Virus record (IMG/VR): IMGVR_UViG_3300048911_000270
Location: 65,064 to 89,483 of that record
DNA length: 24,420 nt
DNA from: a virus
Reading direction: 5' to 3' (one strand)
The translations under genes and the position numbers were made by a program. The notes under the pieces were generated by a model. It saw only the letters and a program-made list of their open reading frames with translations. It made no database searches and had not been told where the DNA came from. Below are positions 5,767 through 20,982 of the stretch, piece by piece (positions within the stretch are counted from its first letter, which is position 1; every line of letters starts with the position of its first letter).

Positions 5767-5814
5767 GGCCCCTCAAATGGCCCATCTAACTGCACATCGT
5801 ATCGAATTAGCCCA

Positions 5815-5848
5815 AAGCCCCCGGCAAATGAGATCCTGCCGGGGGCTT
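5815..5848 (+). terminator. intrinsic terminator hairpin
   Basis: AAGCCCCCGGCA/TGCCGGGGGCTT. Confidence 0.75.
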
Positions 5849-5899
5849 CGTCTTCCCCGCCGCCCGCTCCCGGGCGGCCCCGCACGAGAAAGCAGCACG

Positions 5900-5971
5900 A
5901 TGATCCGGAAACTCCTGCACTGGCGCCGACTGGTCCTCTGGAAGGTCGGTGACTCCCGGTGGATGCGCTGA
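5900..5971 (+). CDS. possible 23-aa cationic peptide MIRKLLHWRRLVLWKVGDSRWMR
   Basis: GAGAAAG upstream; overlaps start of next gene. Confidence 0.35.
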   Translation: MIRKLLHWRRLVLWKVGDSRWMR

Positions 5972-14698: not shown

Positions 14699-14899
14699 TC
14701 AGGGCGCAGCAACATGCCGACTCCGCACCCAGCAGCGCCCCCGCTCGTCCAGGGAATACCCGCACACCCCGTCCTCCGTGAGCGCCGCGCACTCCCCGAA
14801 CCCCTCGTAGTACCAGGCGGGCTCGTCCATGACAGCGGCCAGCAGACGGTTCACCGCCGCATCATGATCAAACTTGCGTTCGCTGAATTCTCCGCTCAT
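14699..14899 (-). CDS. hypothetical protein with C-terminal Cys/His motif
   Basis: protein-like composition from MSGEFSERK; start uncertain, no clear SD. Confidence 0.55.
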   Translation of the reverse strand: MSGEFSERKFDHDAAVNRLLAAVMDEPAWYYEGFGECAALTEDGVCGYSLDERGRCWVRSRHVAAP

Positions 14900-14939
14900 G
14901 CCAGCTTGGACGGAGCGAACCCCCCGAGCGTTACACCTC

Positions 14940-15024
14940 GGGCATGCAAAAGCCCCCTGCACACCCCGGGCATGGGGGTTGCACGTACAGGGGGCTTCAA
15001 CCTACGAGCGACGGAGACTCACTC
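14940..15024 (-). ncRNA. candidate sRNA A-
   Basis: TGCTAGCCT extended -10 at 15032-15040, 5' hairpin with GUCUCCG loop, terminator 14949-14997. Confidence 0.45.
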
Positions 15025-15067
15025 GGGTAAGAGGCTAGCAGTCGGCAGGCCCTGCTAGCGTGGGGGC

Positions 15068-15140
15068 ATCACCTTCTCCGTCGCGGCGGAGAAGCGCGAA
15101 GCCCGCCCCCATGGATCAGGGGCGGGCTTCTGCGTGTGCC
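15068..15140 (+). ncRNA. candidate sRNA A+
   Basis: TGCTAGCGT at 15053-15061, hairpin containing UCUCCGUCGC, terminator 15098-15130. Confidence 0.4.
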
Positions 15141-15146
15141 GTGGGC

Positions 15147-15233
15147 TCAGAGGCCGTGGCGGAGCCGATAGGCGTGCCGGATGATCTCCAGCAGCCGGTA
15201 CAGCTCCACAGCGCAGGCGTGGAACGATCTCAT
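15147..15233 (-). CDS. 28-aa cationic amphipathic peptide (not in ORF track)
   Basis: MRSFHACAVELYRLLEIIRHAYRLRHGL; GGGGGTGA SD, motif upstream, terminator downstream, paralog at 20920. Confidence 0.65.
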   Translation of the reverse strand: MRSFHACAVELYRLLEIIRHAYRLRHGL

Positions 15234-15262
15234 GACAATCACCCCCCGTGTGTACAGGCTCG

Positions 15263-15280
15263 AATATCTCTACCCTAGCA
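15263..15280 (-). promoter_or_regulatory. variant motif copy
   Basis: TGCTAGGGTAGAGATATT. Confidence 0.7.
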
Positions 15281-15372
15281 TACTGGTTAAGGTTTGTACA
15301 ACCCCGGGCCCGAACACAGATGCGCCCCCACCCAGTATGTCGGGCAGGGGCAGGCTTCTGCGTGCCGGGAGA

Positions 15373-15570
15373 TCAGCCCCGGCGCTCACACGGGCAGGTG
15401 ATGTTGAACGCGGCAACCATGAGCTGCGGAGTGTTCGGGTCCTGCCACGTCTTGTCCTCACAGACCTTCGCCGTGCAGCAGGCGCAGCGCGGGCAGTCGT
15501 TACGGGCGGGACAGCGGTCCGTGGGGTGACGGGTGTCCCAGCACCCCAGGCCCGAGCAACGAATGGTCAT
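15373..15570 (-). CDS. 65-aa Cys-rich protein
   Basis: AAGGA RBS, TGATG coupling, 10 Cys. Confidence 0.7.
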   Translation of the reverse strand: MTIRCSGLGCWDTRHPTDRCPARNDCPRCACCTAKVCEDKTWQDPNTPQLMVAAFNITCPCERRG

Positions 15571-15821
15571 CAGGCGTCCTTAGGGGTGGCGGGGTTGTTC
15601 TGGCAGTGATCCATGGCGTCCCCGGGCTCCTCGGTGCCACCGGCCCAACCGACGCCCTTGCCGTCCGGGGTGACGCTGCTGCCGTAGCAGTGCCAGGCCT
15701 CGGTGTGGTTCGCGTTCTCGGGGCTCCAGTCGTGCGCGTCGTGGTGGATGCCGTTGTTGGCGTCGGTGCACTGGATGGGCATCCGGGTGCAGGGAAGGGC
15801 GGGGTAGTAGACGGTGACCAT
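15570..15821 (-). CDS. His/Cys-containing hypothetical protein
   Basis: AGGAG RBS. Confidence 0.7.
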   Translation of the reverse strand: MVTVYYPALPCTRMPIQCTDANNGIHHDAHDWSPENANHTEAWHCYGSSVTPDGKGVGWAGGTEEPGDAMDHCQNNPATPKDA

Positions 15822-15879
15822 GGGAGGCTCCTAGGGGGTGTAGGCGAGGCGCAGCCGGTGTGACTGCGCCCCGGGGTGG

Positions 15880-16272
15880 CTAGCGGTCCTGGGCGGCCCA
15901 GGCGGCTCGGTCGGACTCCGTCTCCCGGCGGTCCAGGTAGGCCTCTGCGGTCTCGCCGGGGAGCTGGTACGCGGCGTCCTCGGCGGTGACCCGGAGCCAG
16001 AAGGCGCTGCCCTCGGTCGGCTCGAACATGGTGACCTTCCAGCCCTGGCGGGAGAGGGCCTTCTCCATCTGGCCGATGGAGCGCTTGGTGATCTTGCGTC
16101 GGTGCGTGGTGTCGACGCGCTGGCCGGTGAACTCGCCCGCGACGTGGGTGACCAGGACGTCTCCGTTGTCCTCGGGGTTGACCAGGAAGCCGCCGTAGAT
16201 GATGCCGGGGCGCTGGGTGGTGGCGGTGAATCCGGCGTTCAGGAGGGCCTGCTCGATGTGCTGGGTGTCCAC
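15880..16272 (-). CDS. hypothetical protein (paralog of the N-terminus of 21035..21574)
   Basis: GAGGAGAC RBS after motif; shared GFT..GF..VT..G..RR.I..M..L..G..WLRV. Confidence 0.8.
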   Translation of the reverse strand: MDTQHIEQALLNAGFTATTQRPGIIYGGFLVNPEDNGDVLVTHVAGEFTGQRVDTTHRRKITKRSIGQMEKALSRQGWKVTMFEPTEGSAFWLRVTAEDAAYQLPGETAEAYLDRRETESDRAAWAAQDR

Positions 16273-16298
16273 GGGGTCTCCTCGGTTCGGCTTGGCTT

Positions 16299-16316
16299 GA
16301 TGTATCTACCCTAGCA
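16299..16316 (-). promoter_or_regulatory. 18-bp promoter/operator motif copy
   Basis: perfect match. Confidence 0.85.
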
Positions 16317-16335
16317 CATTGATTCCGGGGAGTCC

Positions 16336-16425
16336 AGACATGACGAAGCCCCCTCGATCGTCAACGCCCCTAGGCGGGCTCAGATCAAAAGGGCTTCGCC
16401 GCTTCCGTCCACGCGAATGAAACGG
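16336..16425 (-). ncRNA. candidate sRNA B
   Basis: TGCTAGTCTCTTACCC promoter-like stretch (near-identical to that of sRNA A-), short hairpin, terminator 16344-16398. Confidence 0.35.
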
Positions 16426-16434
16426 GGTAAGAGA

Positions 16435-16788
16435 CTAGCAGCCTGTGCAAACCACCCAGAACGGCATCCGGTCCCGCAACACCTTGATCCCCGGGATCTC
16501 ACACACGCCGCCTACAGGGGCCAGGATGTCCATCACGACCTCCAGGGCCATCCCGTGCCCCCGGTTGCCCGTACAGGCCGCCGTGATGGTGTCCTCGGGC
16601 CCTCCACCCTTCGGGCAGCCGCAGTCCGGAGAACAGTTGATCAACTTGTCCACCGTCGTAGCCGTACCCACCGGTACAGAGTCCCGCCAGTTCATCACCC
16701 GGGCCGTGATCCGGGCCTCCAGGACGGGATCCAGGGCGTGCACAGCCTCCCGGGTGACGGTGATACCGCCAGGCATCGGAGCAGACAT
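16435..16788 (-). CDS. hypothetical Cys-containing protein
   Basis: AAGGAG RBS. Confidence 0.7.
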   Translation of the reverse strand: MSAPMPGGITVTREAVHALDPVLEARITARVMNWRDSVPVGTATTVDKLINCSPDCGCPKGGGPEDTITAACTGNRGHGMALEVVMDILAPVGGVCEIPGIKVLRDRMPFWVVCTGC

Positions 16789-16790
16789 GA

Positions 16791-17693
16791 TCATTCTCCT
16801 TCGTCGTTGGCAGGGGTGAGGTCGGACTCCCAGCACCAGCCAGGCCGCAGGCCCTCCGTGAACCGCACCAAGGCGTCCCAGGCGTTCCGCTCCCCGTTGA
16901 ACCGGTGCTCCAGGACGTGACCTTCATCGTCGTCGTAGCGGACCCGGGCGCCCACGGAGTACAGCGGCTGCTTGCCACCCACGGCAGGGGGAAGGTCCCC
17001 GCAGATCCCGCAGTGCGTCCAGGTCTTGCCCTCGGCGTCCAGGGCGGGCTTGTCGTCCCCGTCCAGGGCGGTCACGTAGACGTGGGTGTGAGGACCCGCG
17101 TCGGGAAGGTCGGCCCTCGTGAGGGTGTCCGGGACGTCCAGGTCGGTGTTCCACAGCACGATCACGTCCACGTCCTCATCCCTCAGGGCCCGGCGGATGA
17201 GCTGGTAGGCGATGGGCGGCTCGTCGGCGTTGGCGGGGTCGTGGGCGGTGATGACGGCGTCCACCTGGTAGCCGCATTCCATGGCGTAGATGCGCAGCCG
17301 GGTGCGGCGGTACAGATCGTCCCCGTCGAGATTGGGCTCGGGGTGGGCGAGGTAGACGACGGCGCGCTTCGGGGTGGGGTCGGTGTCGGGCACGGGGGCG
17401 GTCTCCTTGAAGGTGTGGCGGGCGGCTTCCTGGGTCTGATCGGCGGTGCAGCCTGCGCGGATGGCTCCGGTGACCATCCGTTCGACGTGAGGGGCAGCGC
17501 GTTCCTCGCGGAGGATGGCGGCAATGTGGTCGGCCGCAGGGGGCGTAATGACGGCCCGGGTGCTGACGGCGAACGCCTTGCAGAAACAGCCCTCGACGGA
17601 GCAGACCCCGCCGGGGATGTGCCAGTTGTAGGGGTGGTCGCATTCGGGGGTGGCGCAGGGCGTGGACAGGGTGGGGCGGGCAGGTTGGGGCAC
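16791..17693 (-). CDS. multidomain protein: Cys/His finger, degenerate serine-resolvase-like domain, C-terminal small domain
   Basis: CAGGAG RBS before GTG 17693; CDHPYNWH..C...CFCKAF; RAVVYL...RLRIYA..CGY.V...VDVIVLW; internal RBS/GTG at 17393. Confidence 0.7.
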   Translation of the reverse strand: MPQPARPTLSTPCATPECDHPYNWHIPGGVCSVEGCFCKAFAVSTRAVITPPAADHIAAILREERAAPHVERMVTGAIRAGCTADQTQEAARHTFKETAPVPDTDPTPKRAVVYLAHPEPNLDGDDLYRRTRLRIYAMECGYQVDAVITAHDPANADEPPIAYQLIRRALRDEDVDVIVLWNTDLDVPDTLTRADLPDAGPHTHVYVTALDGDDKPALDAEGKTWTHCGICGDLPPAVGGKQPLYSVGARVRYDDDEGHVLEHRFNGERNAWDALVRFTEGLRPGWCWESDLTPANDEGE

Positions 17694-17754
17694 GGGTGGC
17701 TCCTGGATAGGGCGGGCCCTCCAGGGTGTTCTGGAGGGCCCGGGGTGTGACGGG

Positions 17755-17967
17755 TCAGGGGAGCAGCTTGGCGAGGGCTCGAAGGTCCCCCATGGTGAGC
17801 CCGGTACGGACGCCCGGCCCGTAGATGTTGCTGGTGGCGTTGATGACCTCCCGGTCGTCCGCGTCGTCCGCGTAGATGGCGAGGACGTGGGCAAGGGCTT
17901 CGGCGGGGGTGGTGGGGGCGGGGCCGTACTTCTCGATGGCGTCCCGGCGGACCTGTTCGATTCCCAC
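17755..17967 (-). CDS. hypothetical protein
   Basis: AAGGAG RBS. Confidence 0.75.
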   Translation of the reverse strand: MGIEQVRRDAIEKYGPAPTTPAEALAHVLAIYADDADDREVINATSNIYGPGVRTGLTMGDLRALAKLLP

Positions 17968-17992
17968 GGTGTTCTCCTTGGGGTGCAGGGGG

Positions 17993-18214
17993 TCAGGAGA
18001 CCCAGTTGGTGACGGTGGTCTGGTTCTGCCAGAAGGCCCGGCGCTCCTGGTCCTCGATGGCCTCGGTGTGGCGGGCTTCGGCTGCCTTGGCTTCCCAGCG
18101 CTGGCCCATGGCGTACAGGGCGTTCCGGGTGGCTTCGTCGGTGGCCTGGGCTGCTCCGTGGAAGGCTTGCTGGGCGAGGGTGGTGTATGAGGCGGAGGCG
18201 GGGCGGTTCGACAC
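17993..18214 (-). CDS. hypothetical helical protein
   Basis: GAGGAGAC RBS after motif. Confidence 0.75.
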   Translation of the reverse strand: MSNRPASASYTTLAQQAFHGAAQATDEATRNALYAMGQRWEAKAAEARHTEAIEDQERRAFWQNQTTVTNWVS

Positions 18215-18243
18215 GGGGTCTCCTCGGTGTTGGTGTCCCTTGC

Positions 18244-18261
18244 GATGTATCTACCCTAGCA
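18244..18261 (-). promoter_or_regulatory. 18-bp promoter/operator motif copy
   Basis: perfect match. Confidence 0.85.
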
Positions 18262-18290
18262 CATTGAGTAGAGGGGGCACAACACCATCC

Positions 18291-18383
18291 GGGCATACGA
18301 AAGCCCCCGTAAGCTCCCCGGCCAGGGAGTAAGCCTTACGAGGGCTTCCGTGTGCTTCCAGGCACGCGTCAACGGAGAGACGC
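18291..18383 (-). ncRNA. candidate sRNA C
   Basis: TGCTAGCCT at 18390-18398, 5' hairpin GCGUC-UCUCCGUU-GACGC, terminator 18300-18348. Confidence 0.45.
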
Positions 18384-18492
18384 AGGACCAGGCTAGCAGC
18401 CCCCGGGCATGGAAGAACCCCCGTGAGCGCCCCTGGACTGGCGTTGATCTCACGAGGGTTCCTACGGCGTACCTTGAGTCACCGCGAGCAGC

Positions 18493-18768
18493 TTACCCGG
18501 CGAGGTGGGGCATGTGGGACCGGTACGGCATGTCGGCCCGCTCGTGCCAGAAGACGACGGTGTCGTACAGGCCCTCCTCGACCCCCTTCAAGGCGTCGGC
18601 CCAGCGCAGGGTGTCCGTTGACGACCCCAGGGGGTACGGGACGATCCGGACGCCGTAGATGGTGTAGCCGTGGTCCCGGGCGAAGCGGCGGAGCTGCTGG
18701 AGGCGTTCCCAGGCGTCGGGGGTGATCAGGGTGCTGTCGGGGCGGTAGTAGACCAGGGCGGTGCGCAT
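18493..18768 (-). CDS. truncated serine-resolvase N-terminal-domain-like protein
   Basis: MRTALVYYRPDST...QQLRRFARDHGYTI...ALKGVEEGLYDTVVFW; lacks the DRLxR motif and DNA-binding domain. Confidence 0.6.
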   Translation of the reverse strand: MRTALVYYRPDSTLITPDAWERLQQLRRFARDHGYTIYGVRIVPYPLGSSTDTLRWADALKGVEEGLYDTVVFWHERADMPYRSHMPHLAG

Positions 18769-18773
18769 AGGGG

Positions 18774-18830
18774 CTAGCCGTTCTTCTCGCAGGGGCAGGG
18801 GACGGTGTCGGCGGCGTAGCGGGCGTTCAC
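18774..18830 (-). CDS. 18-aa peptide MNARYAADTVPCPCEKNG
   Basis: CAGGAGACCCC RBS, GTGA overlap, stop 5 nt before next ATG. Confidence 0.45.
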   Translation of the reverse strand: MNARYAADTVPCPCEKNG

Positions 18831-19012
18831 GGGGTCTCCTGGGGGTCGGCAGCGGGCTTGAAGCCGTCACGGGCTACGGCGCGGCGGACGGCTTTGGCCT
18901 GGTGTTCCCAGTACGAGCGGTCGTCGGGGGACATGCTGTCCCAGGGGGCGCCGTTCGGGTCGAAGCGCTGGGCCAGCCAGGCGGGGAGGGTGTCGGTGGT
19001 GGGGTGGGCCAT
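18827..19012 (-). CDS. 61-aa hypothetical protein
   Basis: GAGGAG RBS before MAHPTT. Confidence 0.7.
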   Translation of the reverse strand: MAHPTTDTLPAWLAQRFDPNGAPWDSMSPDDRSYWEHQAKAVRRAVARDGFKPAADPQETP

Positions 19013-20919: not shown

Positions 20920-20982
20920 CTACCAGCCGTGCCGGAACCTGAGATAGACCCGAAGAATCTGGATCATGTGGTGCCACGCCAT
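20920..20982 (-). CDS. 20-aa cationic amphipathic peptide (not in ORF track)
   Basis: MAWHHMIQILRVYLRFRHGW; GGGGGTGA SD; terminator 20878-20908; aligns with the 15147 peptide. Confidence 0.6.
   Translation of the reverse strand: MAWHHMIQILRVYLRFRHGW

Follow-up and report, generated by a model that had tools for sequence, protein, structure and literature searches.

Candidate small non-coding RNA genes with a common promoter core and terminator hairpin in an uncultured soil actinophage

A family of four or five paralogous units was identified inside 3.5 kb of the genome of an uncultured soil actinophage, and three of them (A, C and D), probably together with a mirror copy (B), may be independent phage small non-coding RNA genes, a reading to which a probability of about 45% is given. 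The stretch of DNA analysed (24,420 nt, here called the window) belongs to an 89-kb record which is 70% complete. In silico evidence supports both that A to D are discrete ORF-less structured units, each running from an extended -10 element (TGN-TANNNT, of the actinobacterial type) to a strong hairpin, and that the units form a paralogous family.

The initial annotation had described four ORF-less units with a common layout, and all of their coordinates and motifs were confirmed. The four TGCTAGYST sites (15032-15040(-), 15053-15061(+), 16432-16440(-) and 18390-18398(-)) each head an ORF-less stretch with a small 5' hairpin and a long hairpin, with z-scores between -3.6 and -4.8. The motif was observed four times in the window while 0.34 was expected, and none of 100 shuffles reached four. 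Fold z-scores were -4.8 (A), -3.6 (B), -4.0 (C) and -4.6 (D), and -2.6 for a fifth unit, E. The promoter-to-hairpin length stayed within 84-91 nt in A, C and D, which also lacked credible ORFs and showed flat GC content over codon positions. A generic trans-acting base-pairing sRNA gene has its own promoter, its own intrinsic terminator and no ORF, and all three features were found here in silico.

The TGCTAG-NN-T core is the same as that of 38 main-class promoters of this phage, 36 of which have an ORF within 58 nt. Since four main-class promoters end exactly in a leaderless ATG, +1 was set about 7 nt past the hexamer. TANNNT with a TGN extension and without a -35 element is an established actinobacterial promoter form, and in Mycobacterium tuberculosis a mapped start site exists for only about 18% of TGNTANNNT motifs (PMC3898074). 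A 15-mer variant, TGCTAGYCTCTTACY, was present in four exact copies in the 89-kb record, two of them beyond the window (genome 55758 and 56650), and every copy stood before ORF-less structured DNA. The units concerned are A and C, plus F and H outside the window (about 24 kb away), all with strong folds and ended by a terminator. Among the units of the window the full variant is carried by A and C only, and D has just the -10 core. The promoter class of their own that had been proposed for the units is supported in part, by the 15-mer, which occurs only before ORF-less DNA, though B and D are without it. The longer motif said to be common to two units, CTGCTAGYCTCTTACCC, was indeed found at 15041(-) and 16441(-).

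The promoter of unit A (15025-15041, minus strand) consists of the extended -10 CTGCTAGCCT followed by CTTACCC, as in the 15-mer variant; an identical stretch of 14-15 nt is found at genome 56650(+), and the copies at 16440(-) and genome 55758(+) have T in place of C. The predicted RNA (14940-15024, minus strand) has 85 nt (MFE -45.1, z -4.78) and is predicted to fold into a 5' hairpin (15006-15024) with the loop GUCUCCG and a long hairpin (14949-14998) of 14 bp with an apical stem of 5 bp, followed by UUUUG. The tail motif GCATGCCCGAGG (14933-14948, minus strand) lies 3' of the hairpin. The gene at 14699-14899 (minus strand), 41 nt 3' of the terminator of A, is a real gene of 66 aa (homologue P0012, 60% identity, E 4e-13), with neither a main-class promoter nor a clear SD.

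Unit B (predicted RNA 15068-15145, plus strand, 78 nt, z -3.59) could be aligned with A. Its promoter (15053-15061, plus strand), TGCTAGCGT, judged against the main-class consensus TGCTAGGGTAGATACATCA, is a degenerate main-class copy with the CATCA start kept at 15066-15070. In the predicted 5' hairpin (15073-15094) UUCUCCG is paired with CGGAGAA, and a bidirectional terminator (15098-15130) also ends a minus-strand micro-ORF of 28 aa (15148-15234). Unless B reads through, its overlap with this micro-ORF's mRNA is confined to the 3' UTR and terminator. A quasi-palindrome of 77 bp (15008-15084, centre 15046) is built of nested inverted repeats. The inverted repeat between A and B noted earlier (15034-15041 / 15052-15059) proved real, and its 8-nt arms are the two promoter cores; it is enclosed by a perfect outer repeat of 10 nt (15008-15017 / 15075-15084, GCGACGGAGA / TCTCCGTCGC), which together with the inner repeat makes A and B mirror images. 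The apical loops of A and B are likewise in inverted-repeat relation, and the exact 10-mer TCTCCGTCGC, common to both units, has just two copies in the 89-kb genome. From the alignment and the repeats, B is judged to be a diverged mirror copy of A. A promoter-less hairpin module at 15300-15365 (plus strand) has a B-like tail, CTTCTGCGTGCCGGG, and matches B over 20 nt at 95%; on the minus strand it is the terminator of the gene 15373-15570.

The promoter of unit C (16424-16441, minus strand) is CTGCTAGTCT plus CTTACCCC, and its TAG (16435-16437) also ends the 133-aa gene that lies upstream (16435-16836), for which C is the sole 3' UTR and terminator. The predicted RNA (16336-16425, minus strand, 90 nt, z -3.96) is without UCUCCGU, and its predicted fold comprises a 5' hairpin, a long hairpin of 18 bp with an apical GCCC/GGGC stem, and the tail CATGTCTGG. 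Unit D has CTGCTAGCCT (18390-18399, minus strand) as a -10 core without CTCTTACC, and its predicted RNA (18291-18383, minus strand, 93 nt, MFE -50.6, z -4.58) would form one hairpin with loop UCUCCGUU, a second with loop CUGGAA, and a long hairpin of 17 bp with a 6-bp apical stem; the tail ATGCCCGG (18296-18289) starts within the final 6 nt. Directly 3' of C, and likewise of D, stands a complete main-class promoter that serves the gene to follow. With only 2-3 U, the U-tracts behind the hairpins of C and D are weak, and a considerable amount of read-through may result. The fifth unit with a similar terminator, E (18405-18492, minus strand, z -2.59), was verified as a related hairpin module and paralogue of the long hairpin and tail of D. 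It is the 3' UTR and terminator of the gene 18493-18870 and has no TGCTAG promoter, its sole promoter-like element being TAAGCT, which overlaps the stop codon.

In leave-one-out nhmmer searches with A, C, D and E the left-out member was recovered each time (E = 2.7e-5, 7.7e-4, 3.7e-6 and 1e-3), the last value, for unit E, covering the terminator half only. The tail GGGG(C/T)T..ATG(C/T)C.. occurs after A, C, D and E and nowhere else in the genome, and in none of 5 relatives. Identity among the paralogues was 90-100% in the promoter core and 100% in the outer stem, 33-48% in the flanks, and 44-57% in the RNA body (5' domain), which equals background. The inner seven stem pairs were swapped with full compensation, these compensatory changes being among the four paralogues of this genome only. 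Anatomy, paralogy, lack of ORFs and selective conservation of start and stop signals, together with the predicted folds, are what the analysis shows. The distribution of conserved positions indicates that the start and stop signals are under selection; it is the expression signals that are conserved, not a seed.

Searches of about 10 contigs of related phages, of Rfam 15, of 50,697 records of cultured phages and of 185,579 species genomes gave no homologue of the units. There was none in 5 full relatives or about 100 further loci either, and the orthologous gene junctions in G001 and G002 contained no unit. As the units are absent from every relative, covariation evidence across genomes is not available. 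In the Rfam covariance-model check no family reached its gathering score, the best being tfoR (20.9 bits, gathering score 70), His_leader (20.7, 49) and Thr_leader (19.2, 55).

That the units are transcribed, where their RNAs begin and end, and what these would target or affect is inferred. If they are small RNA genes, the RNA polymerase of the host, carrying its principal sigma factor, would recognise the extended -10 TGC-TAGYCT, and transcription would start at a purine 7-8 nt downstream, run for about 85-95 nt and stop at the long GC-rich hairpin (GAAGCCC...GGGGGCUU). The product, a 5' hairpin plus a 3' hairpin of 19-23 bp, should be stable. In A and D the 5' hairpin would expose a pyrimidine-rich loop, (G)UCUCCG(U), close to the 5' end, and the most likely action would be base-pairing between this exposed domain and a G-rich sequence, which might be a GGAGA(C)-type ribosome-binding site on an mRNA of the phage or of its host. 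The 5' domain of C differs, so C would have another target.

The motif UCUCCGU was located in three units, as first described (15011-15017(-), 15075-15081(+) and 18372-18378(-)), and MFE folds placed it in a hairpin loop in A and D and in a stem in B, where it is predicted to pair with B's own GGAGAA arm. It is position-locked in the RNA, where it spans +8 to +14 for both A and B and +6 to +12 for D, and GUCUCC in the loop of A is perfectly complementary to GGAGAC, a sequence that 16 of the 38 main-class leaders contain. The anti-SD or sponge function that had been attached to it found no support in these comparisons: duplex energies of the 5' domains with the 38 main-class leaders equalled those of dinucleotide shuffles and the motif was not enriched. 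The 7-mer occurred 6 times in the window (4.4 expected), TCTCC 4 times in 1051 nt of ORF-less units (about 2 expected at the genome rate), and complementarity of at least 13 nt to any phage transcript was found only in terminator stems. It is quite improbable that a two-tier promoter code exists, in which the 18-mer TGCTAGGGTAGATACATC would serve about 36 protein cassettes and the 15-mer TGCTAGYCTCTTACY would be reserved for non-coding RNAs, with the 5'-proximal UCUCCGU loop of the A, B and D RNAs acting as an anti-Shine-Dalgarno seed that retunes translation of GGAGA(C)-led phage or host mRNAs during infection. If true, these RNAs would constitute a phage-borne family of global translational regulators in an Hfq-less actinobacterial host.

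The units might instead be leader or attenuator modules, in which the promoter feeds downstream cassettes, termination at the long hairpin is leaky or under the control of a factor, and the short RNA is a by-product. The 66-aa gene after A, which lacks both its own promoter and a clear SD, and the weak U-tracts of C and D would fit this, as would the co-orientation of every unit with the downstream gene array, and the small position-locked 5' hairpins could bind a protein on nascent RNA. This explanation is nevertheless unlikely, because the next gene after C and after D has its full main-class promoter, H (with the same 15-mer) points at a convergent gene, which leaves it no cassette to feed, the folds show no alternative antiterminator pairing, and a Q-type antiterminator (PF06530, PF03589) was not found in the 89 kb, although at 70% completeness of the record its absence is not proven.

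Recombination among the standard parts (terminator, promoter, leader, small gene) of which this phage would build its accessory region could also have left promoter-terminator pairs without cargo, whose RNAs would be functionless. Only standard parts are conserved (the promoter core and the GAAGCCC/GGGCTTC stem base) while the body is at background, the units are missing from all relatives, which differ from one another by a shuffled gene order, E and the 15300-15365 module are promoter-less, and B, where a mutated promoter and the CATCACC start are combined with an SD-like GGAGAA arm but with no ORF, resembles a decayed main-class cassette; T4-type phages build likewise with PeSL cassettes (PMC2839356). 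However, an emptied main-class cassette should retain the main-class promoter and leader, whereas A and C carry the different 15-mer, which two unrelated ORF-less units at a distance of 24 kb also have. The promoter core has stayed intact beside sequence at background identity, inner stem pairing has been preserved through compensatory changes, and the 84-91 nt length has been held in A, C and D, so that relics of cassette shuffling are a rather doubtful explanation of the units.

It is very unlikely that the palindromes (the 77-bp A/B element, CTTCTCCG-N6-CGGAGAAG and the tail CATGCCCGG) are DNA-level sites for a phage regulator or recombinase, with A/B working as a switch between divergent promoters and B as an RNA antisense to the 28-aa micro-ORF, in the manner of lambda OOP or of a type I toxin-antitoxin system, since no DNA-binding or recombinase domain was found in the ten neighbouring proteins (Pfam, PHROGs), an antisense promoter is missing at a paralogous micro-ORF (about 20920-20982), neither C nor D has a mirror partner, and the 28-aa peptide is amphipathic and cationic whereas a typical type I toxin is hydrophobic. 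The repeats are, for their part, concentric at 15046, the centre of the 8+6+8 palindrome lies about 60 bp upstream of the A start and about 16 bp downstream of the B start, the -10 elements of A and B are just 18 bp apart so that both promoters could not be occupied simultaneously, B converges on the micro-ORF with a common terminator, and the tail motif lies beyond the U-tract and so may not be in the RNA at all.

Small RNA genes of this kind can be compared with several known systems. In the actinobacterial 6C / B11 sRNA, the loops that pair with G-rich ribosome-binding regions are rich in C. It shares with the units the host clade and the logic proposed for them, a pyrimidine-rich hairpin loop against a G-rich SD region, but the loops here are UCUCCG instead of C runs, the units are phage-borne and unique to this genome, and the 6C model (RF01066), which has two hairpins with C-rich loops, gave no match at E <= 0.001 across the 89-kb record. 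Leader and antitermination precedents are lambda PR'-6S RNA-tR' with Q and the N/nut hairpins, and so are the short RNAs from 5' UTRs that are seen in many phages. Phage ncRNA candidates derived from 5' UTRs or from premature termination have been mapped by ONT-cappable-seq (Putzeys et al. 2024, PMC10914365). Both these candidates and PR'-6S have a promoter, a terminator about 100 nt on and co-oriented genes downstream, which fits A and its promoter-less 66-aa gene, but C and D each have a further complete promoter behind them and no antiterminator gene was found; a PR'/6S-type antitermination leader would go with a Q-type antiterminator gene, and PF06530 and PF03589 were absent from the 89 kb of a record 70% complete. 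In the PeSL (promoter-early stem-loop) cassettes of T4-type phages a stem-loop stands at or before the promoter, and the gene follows (Arbiol et al. 2010, PMC2839356). Repeated sigma-70-type promoters and terminator stem-loops between small ORFan genes in a plastic region, with conserved parts and varying cargo, are common to both. The main-class promoters have this arrangement but the units do not, being a promoter, 85-95 gene-less nt and a hairpin with no gene before it, under a promoter variant distinct from the gene-heading one.

The stand-alone phage small RNAs lambda OOP RNA (77 nt) and P22 sar have their own promoter and an intrinsic terminator. Unlike these, A, C and D are antisense to no gene, and the present units form a set of four or five paralogues with no sequence or Rfam similarity to them. 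The likeness to OOP and sar lies in the size of about 80-95 nt, in having a dedicated promoter and an intrinsic terminator but no ORF, and in a place among early or accessory genes, with expression here being predicted, and B is oriented, as OOP is, towards the 3' end of a small gene on the opposite strand.

Four units without a credible ORF, A (14940-15024, minus strand), B (15068-15145, plus strand), C (16336-16425, minus strand) and D (18291-18383, minus strand), were identified in the window as real, non-random promoter-terminator modules, and all the features listed for them in the initial annotation were found where it had placed them. The promoter motif TGCTAGYST occurred four times against 0.34 expected, the longer motif CTGCTAGYCTCTTACCC was common to two of the sites, and UCUCCGU was found in three units. 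GC content was flat over the codon positions in the units, in contrast to the neighbouring genes. The predicted RNAs would fold into a small 5' hairpin followed by a long one that has a CCCC/GGGG stem at its apex, with folding z-scores of -4.8 (A), -3.6 (B), -4.0 (C) and -4.6 (D), and of -2.6 for unit E (18405-18492, minus strand), a related hairpin module without the TGCTAG promoter.

Leave-one-out nhmmer searches of about 380 kb phage DNA recovered the left-out unit as the top non-training match each time (E-values 2.7e-5 for A, 7.7e-4 for C, 3.7e-6 for D and 1e-3 for E). Past the hairpin, these four units carried the tail GGGGG(C/T)T, a few bases, then CATG(C/T)C(C/T)GG, which had no other occurrence in the genome itself or in five relatives. 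A micropeptide starting from the ATG of this tail was ruled out, since the reading frames were not conserved. Between TGCTAG and the 3' arm lay 84 nt in A, 88 nt in C and 91 nt in D. Among these three, block-wise identity was 90-100% in the 10-nt promoter core and 100% in the outer stem (GAAGCCC / GGGGGCTT), then 44-57% in the 5' domain, 48-62% in the inner stem and apical part, and 33-48% in the flanks. The inner seven stem pairs varied by copy and the pairing was always kept (e.g. UA/UA/GC/GC versus GC/UG/UA/UA), as judged from directly computed pair tables and not from a covariance model. Both the block identities and the kept pairs point to constraint on the start and stop signals and on hairpin formation, while at the sequence level no constraint appeared visible in the RNA body. 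GGA motifs in D and C had suggested a CsrA-type sponge; this idea was set aside, since actinobacteria are not generally known to carry CsrA.

The window was the terminal 24.4 kb of an 89,483-bp IMG/VR virus record (GC about 66%, estimated completeness 70%), and from about 6.3 kb on it consisted of small cassettes with nearly all genes on the minus strand. The TGCTAG hexamer was present in 53 copies genome-wide, 35 of which read TGCTAGGGTAGA and three TGCTAGTGTAGA, giving a main class of 38 sites. An SD-led or leaderless ORF lay at most 58 nt from 36 of the 38, and four sites ran exactly into a leaderless ATG, which places the probable +1 about 7 nt past the hexamer TAGGGT. This layout fits the actinobacterial promoter form, TANNNT as -10 with no -35, in which a TGN extension goes with the strongest promoters (PMC3898074). 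No gene for a sigma factor or a single-subunit RNA polymerase was identified across the 89 kb of the record, so the host polymerase is probably used; the idea that the motifs are read by a phage sigma factor or by an RNA polymerase of T7 type was rejected, one sub-threshold helix-turn-helix aside. The latter, similar to sigma-70 region 4 (18.5 bits, E 1.5e-4), was in a 174-aa ORF at genome 43247-43378 (minus strand; locus L190) behind a leaderless main-class-like promoter, and this ORF may encode a phage transcription regulator. The main-class variant TGCTAGGGTAGAAACAAC at genome 44172 (minus strand; locus L003) had the sole long leader of the class, with the first acceptable ORF 153 nt downstream; the stretch between them may hold a further small RNA or form a structured leader. 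Simple consensus scans for sigma-70 promoters and terminators were uninformative in such high-GC DNA.

The units had been credited with a promoter class of their own, which was partly supported: A and C carried the 15-mer variant TGCTAGYCTCTTACY, while D had only the -10 core. The 15-mer occurred four times in the genome, in A, in C and at genome 55758 and 56650 (both plus strand), the last two heading ORF-less, strongly folding stretches of about 215 nt (z -3.5) and about 120 nt (z -5.7), each with a terminator at its end. None of the four copies headed a gene, versus 36 of the 38 main-class sites. That a single phage has two conserved promoter forms, the one heading genes and the other ORF-less structured DNA only, was the most solid and reusable result. 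The 15-mer variant was not found in the relatives, though the main-class motif was common to them, and 32 exact matches in IMG/VR were attributed to chance, being on unrelated contigs throughout. Beyond the window, a non-coding cluster at L002:10695-11720 (genome 55758-56783) held four consecutive promoter-led ORF-less units: TGCTAGTCTCTTACC leads about 215 nt, TGCTAGGCTGTCACC about 110 nt, a main-class promoter the tRNA-like RNA with three T-arms, and TGCTAGCCTCTTACT about 120 nt. This tRNA-like RNA had a homologue in the relative phage contig G002 (37125-37254, 85.6% over 132 nt), unlike the other three, for which none was found.

For the proposal that UCUCCGU pairs with Shine-Dalgarno sequences, there were points on both sides. 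Sixteen of the 38 main-class leaders contain GGAGAC, to which the A loop GUCUCC is exactly complementary, the D loop contains UCUCC, complementary to the GGAGA of 24 leaders, and UCUCCGU was position-locked close to the RNA 5' end. C lacked the motif, and A and D, being paralogues, are not independent observations of it. The 7-mer was not enriched in the window (6 versus 4.4 expected), and TCTCC in the ORF-less units (4 in 1051 nt, about 2 expected) was counted against the idea. Duplex energies of five 5' domains with the 38 leaders gave no gain over dinucleotide shuffles, 61-95% of which equalled or beat them, and complementarity to phage transcripts reached 12-14 nt at most, which is chance level, and lay mainly inside terminator stems. 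The anti-SD step is possible but unsupported. The most likely reading of the units is as candidate small-RNA genes, to which we give a probability of about 0.45.

Unlikely, yet to be weighed, is that the units are leaders or attenuators. Short 5' RNAs ended by premature termination are a common finding in phages (PMC10914365). The C promoter overlapped the stop codon of a 133-aa gene lying upstream, for which the C hairpin was the sole terminator, and E was likewise the terminator for gene 18493-18870. A main-class promoter came directly after C and also after D, and no Q-type antiterminator was found in the 89 kb of the record. For A, a 66-aa ORF (14699-14899, minus strand) started 41 nt past the unit without a promoter or clear SD, so A may also act as a leader; the ORF is real, since protein P0012 is a homologue (60% identity, E 4e-13). 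Its third-position GC was unusually low (0.78 versus 0.93-0.96 in neighbours). Protein P0013 (376 aa) matched the 66-aa query in six stretches, best over residues 3-38, so part of this sequence may be a repeat unit.

The candidate small-RNA genes belong to a family private to this genome. Five relatives, to which the main promoter motifs (18-mer and 14-mer) had led, had 35-65% protein identity and shuffled gene order; no unit was at their orthologous junctions, and blastn-short and an nhmmer profile both detected none in these relatives or at some 100 additional loci. Megablast, tblastn and blastn searches of cultured phages were all negative, and a prophage search of species genomes gave no more than one chance match. 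For the 302-aa gene that lies between C and D, protein-guided searches of viral and metagenome contigs, including two metagenome scans, found no closer relative; in the protein database, closer relatives (P0002-P0006, 52-60%) were on contigs up to 127 kb. Rfam at permissive thresholds returned nothing for the window, the region alone or the other non-coding cluster, and no tRNA or tmRNA was found within the window. A full-length, sub-threshold sodF-sRNA match (5813-5900, minus strand; 30.5 bits versus 46) was rejected as most likely a generic bidirectional terminator; this match to the Streptomyces sRNA rested on a terminator hairpin, GAAGCCCCC...GGGGGCUU, located in a non-coding gap within the plus-strand part of the window. 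In the relative phage contig G001, position 119161-119300 (locus L071) showed a TGCTAGCCCTCT site and then a series of GGTTACAC / GGATACAC repeats where the DNA is richer in AT, an arrangement that resembles iterons or an origin. That the units are functionless cassette relics is unlikely; confinement to one genome speaks for it and the kept stem pairing against it.

The profile search missed B, but judged from its sequence B is a mirror copy of A that has diverged. The two are related by three inverted repeats, roughly concentric at 15042-15046: one of the promoter cores, one of the perfect 10-mer (GCGACGGAGA / TCTCCGTCGC), with no further exact copy genome-wide, and one between the apical loops (CATGGGGG / CCCCCATG). 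The 10-mer lay at RNA +8 to +17 in both, and UCUCCGU in D at +6 to +12. Between promoter and 10-mer A and B were unrelated, so the shared blocks look selected or converted, not freshly duplicated. The B promoter was a degenerate main-class form (TGCTAGCGT, five G, then CATCACC), the UCUCC arm of its predicted 5' hairpin paired with B's own GGAGAA arm, and its terminator was the bidirectional terminator of a 28-aa micro-ORF (15148-15234, minus strand). That the units are DNA-level sites, or A and B a switch, is quite improbable. The micro-ORF, which has the A/B palindrome on one side and a main-class-like promoter (15280) on the other, and another at about 20920-20982 (minus strand) were short and cationic, ending in RLRHGL and RFRHGW; only the former had a convergent promoter-like site. 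The terminator of gene 15373-15570 (15300-15365), whose plus-strand tail CTTCTGCGTGCCGGG was nearly identical to the post-hairpin tail of B, appears to be a further promoter-less, inverted copy of the hairpin module.

The family would be candidate phage-encoded small RNAs or promoter-hairpin regulatory cassettes. To our knowledge, small RNAs of actinobacterial phages are nearly unexplored and Streptomyces-type hosts lack Hfq. The practical value is modest for now, with predicted RNAs confined to one uncultured genome; a small-RNA family with its own promoter variant, if true, would give a handle on phage control of cassette-style early genes or host translation. In overall cassette design, the genome was similar to the PeSL cassettes of T4-type phages (PMC2839356).
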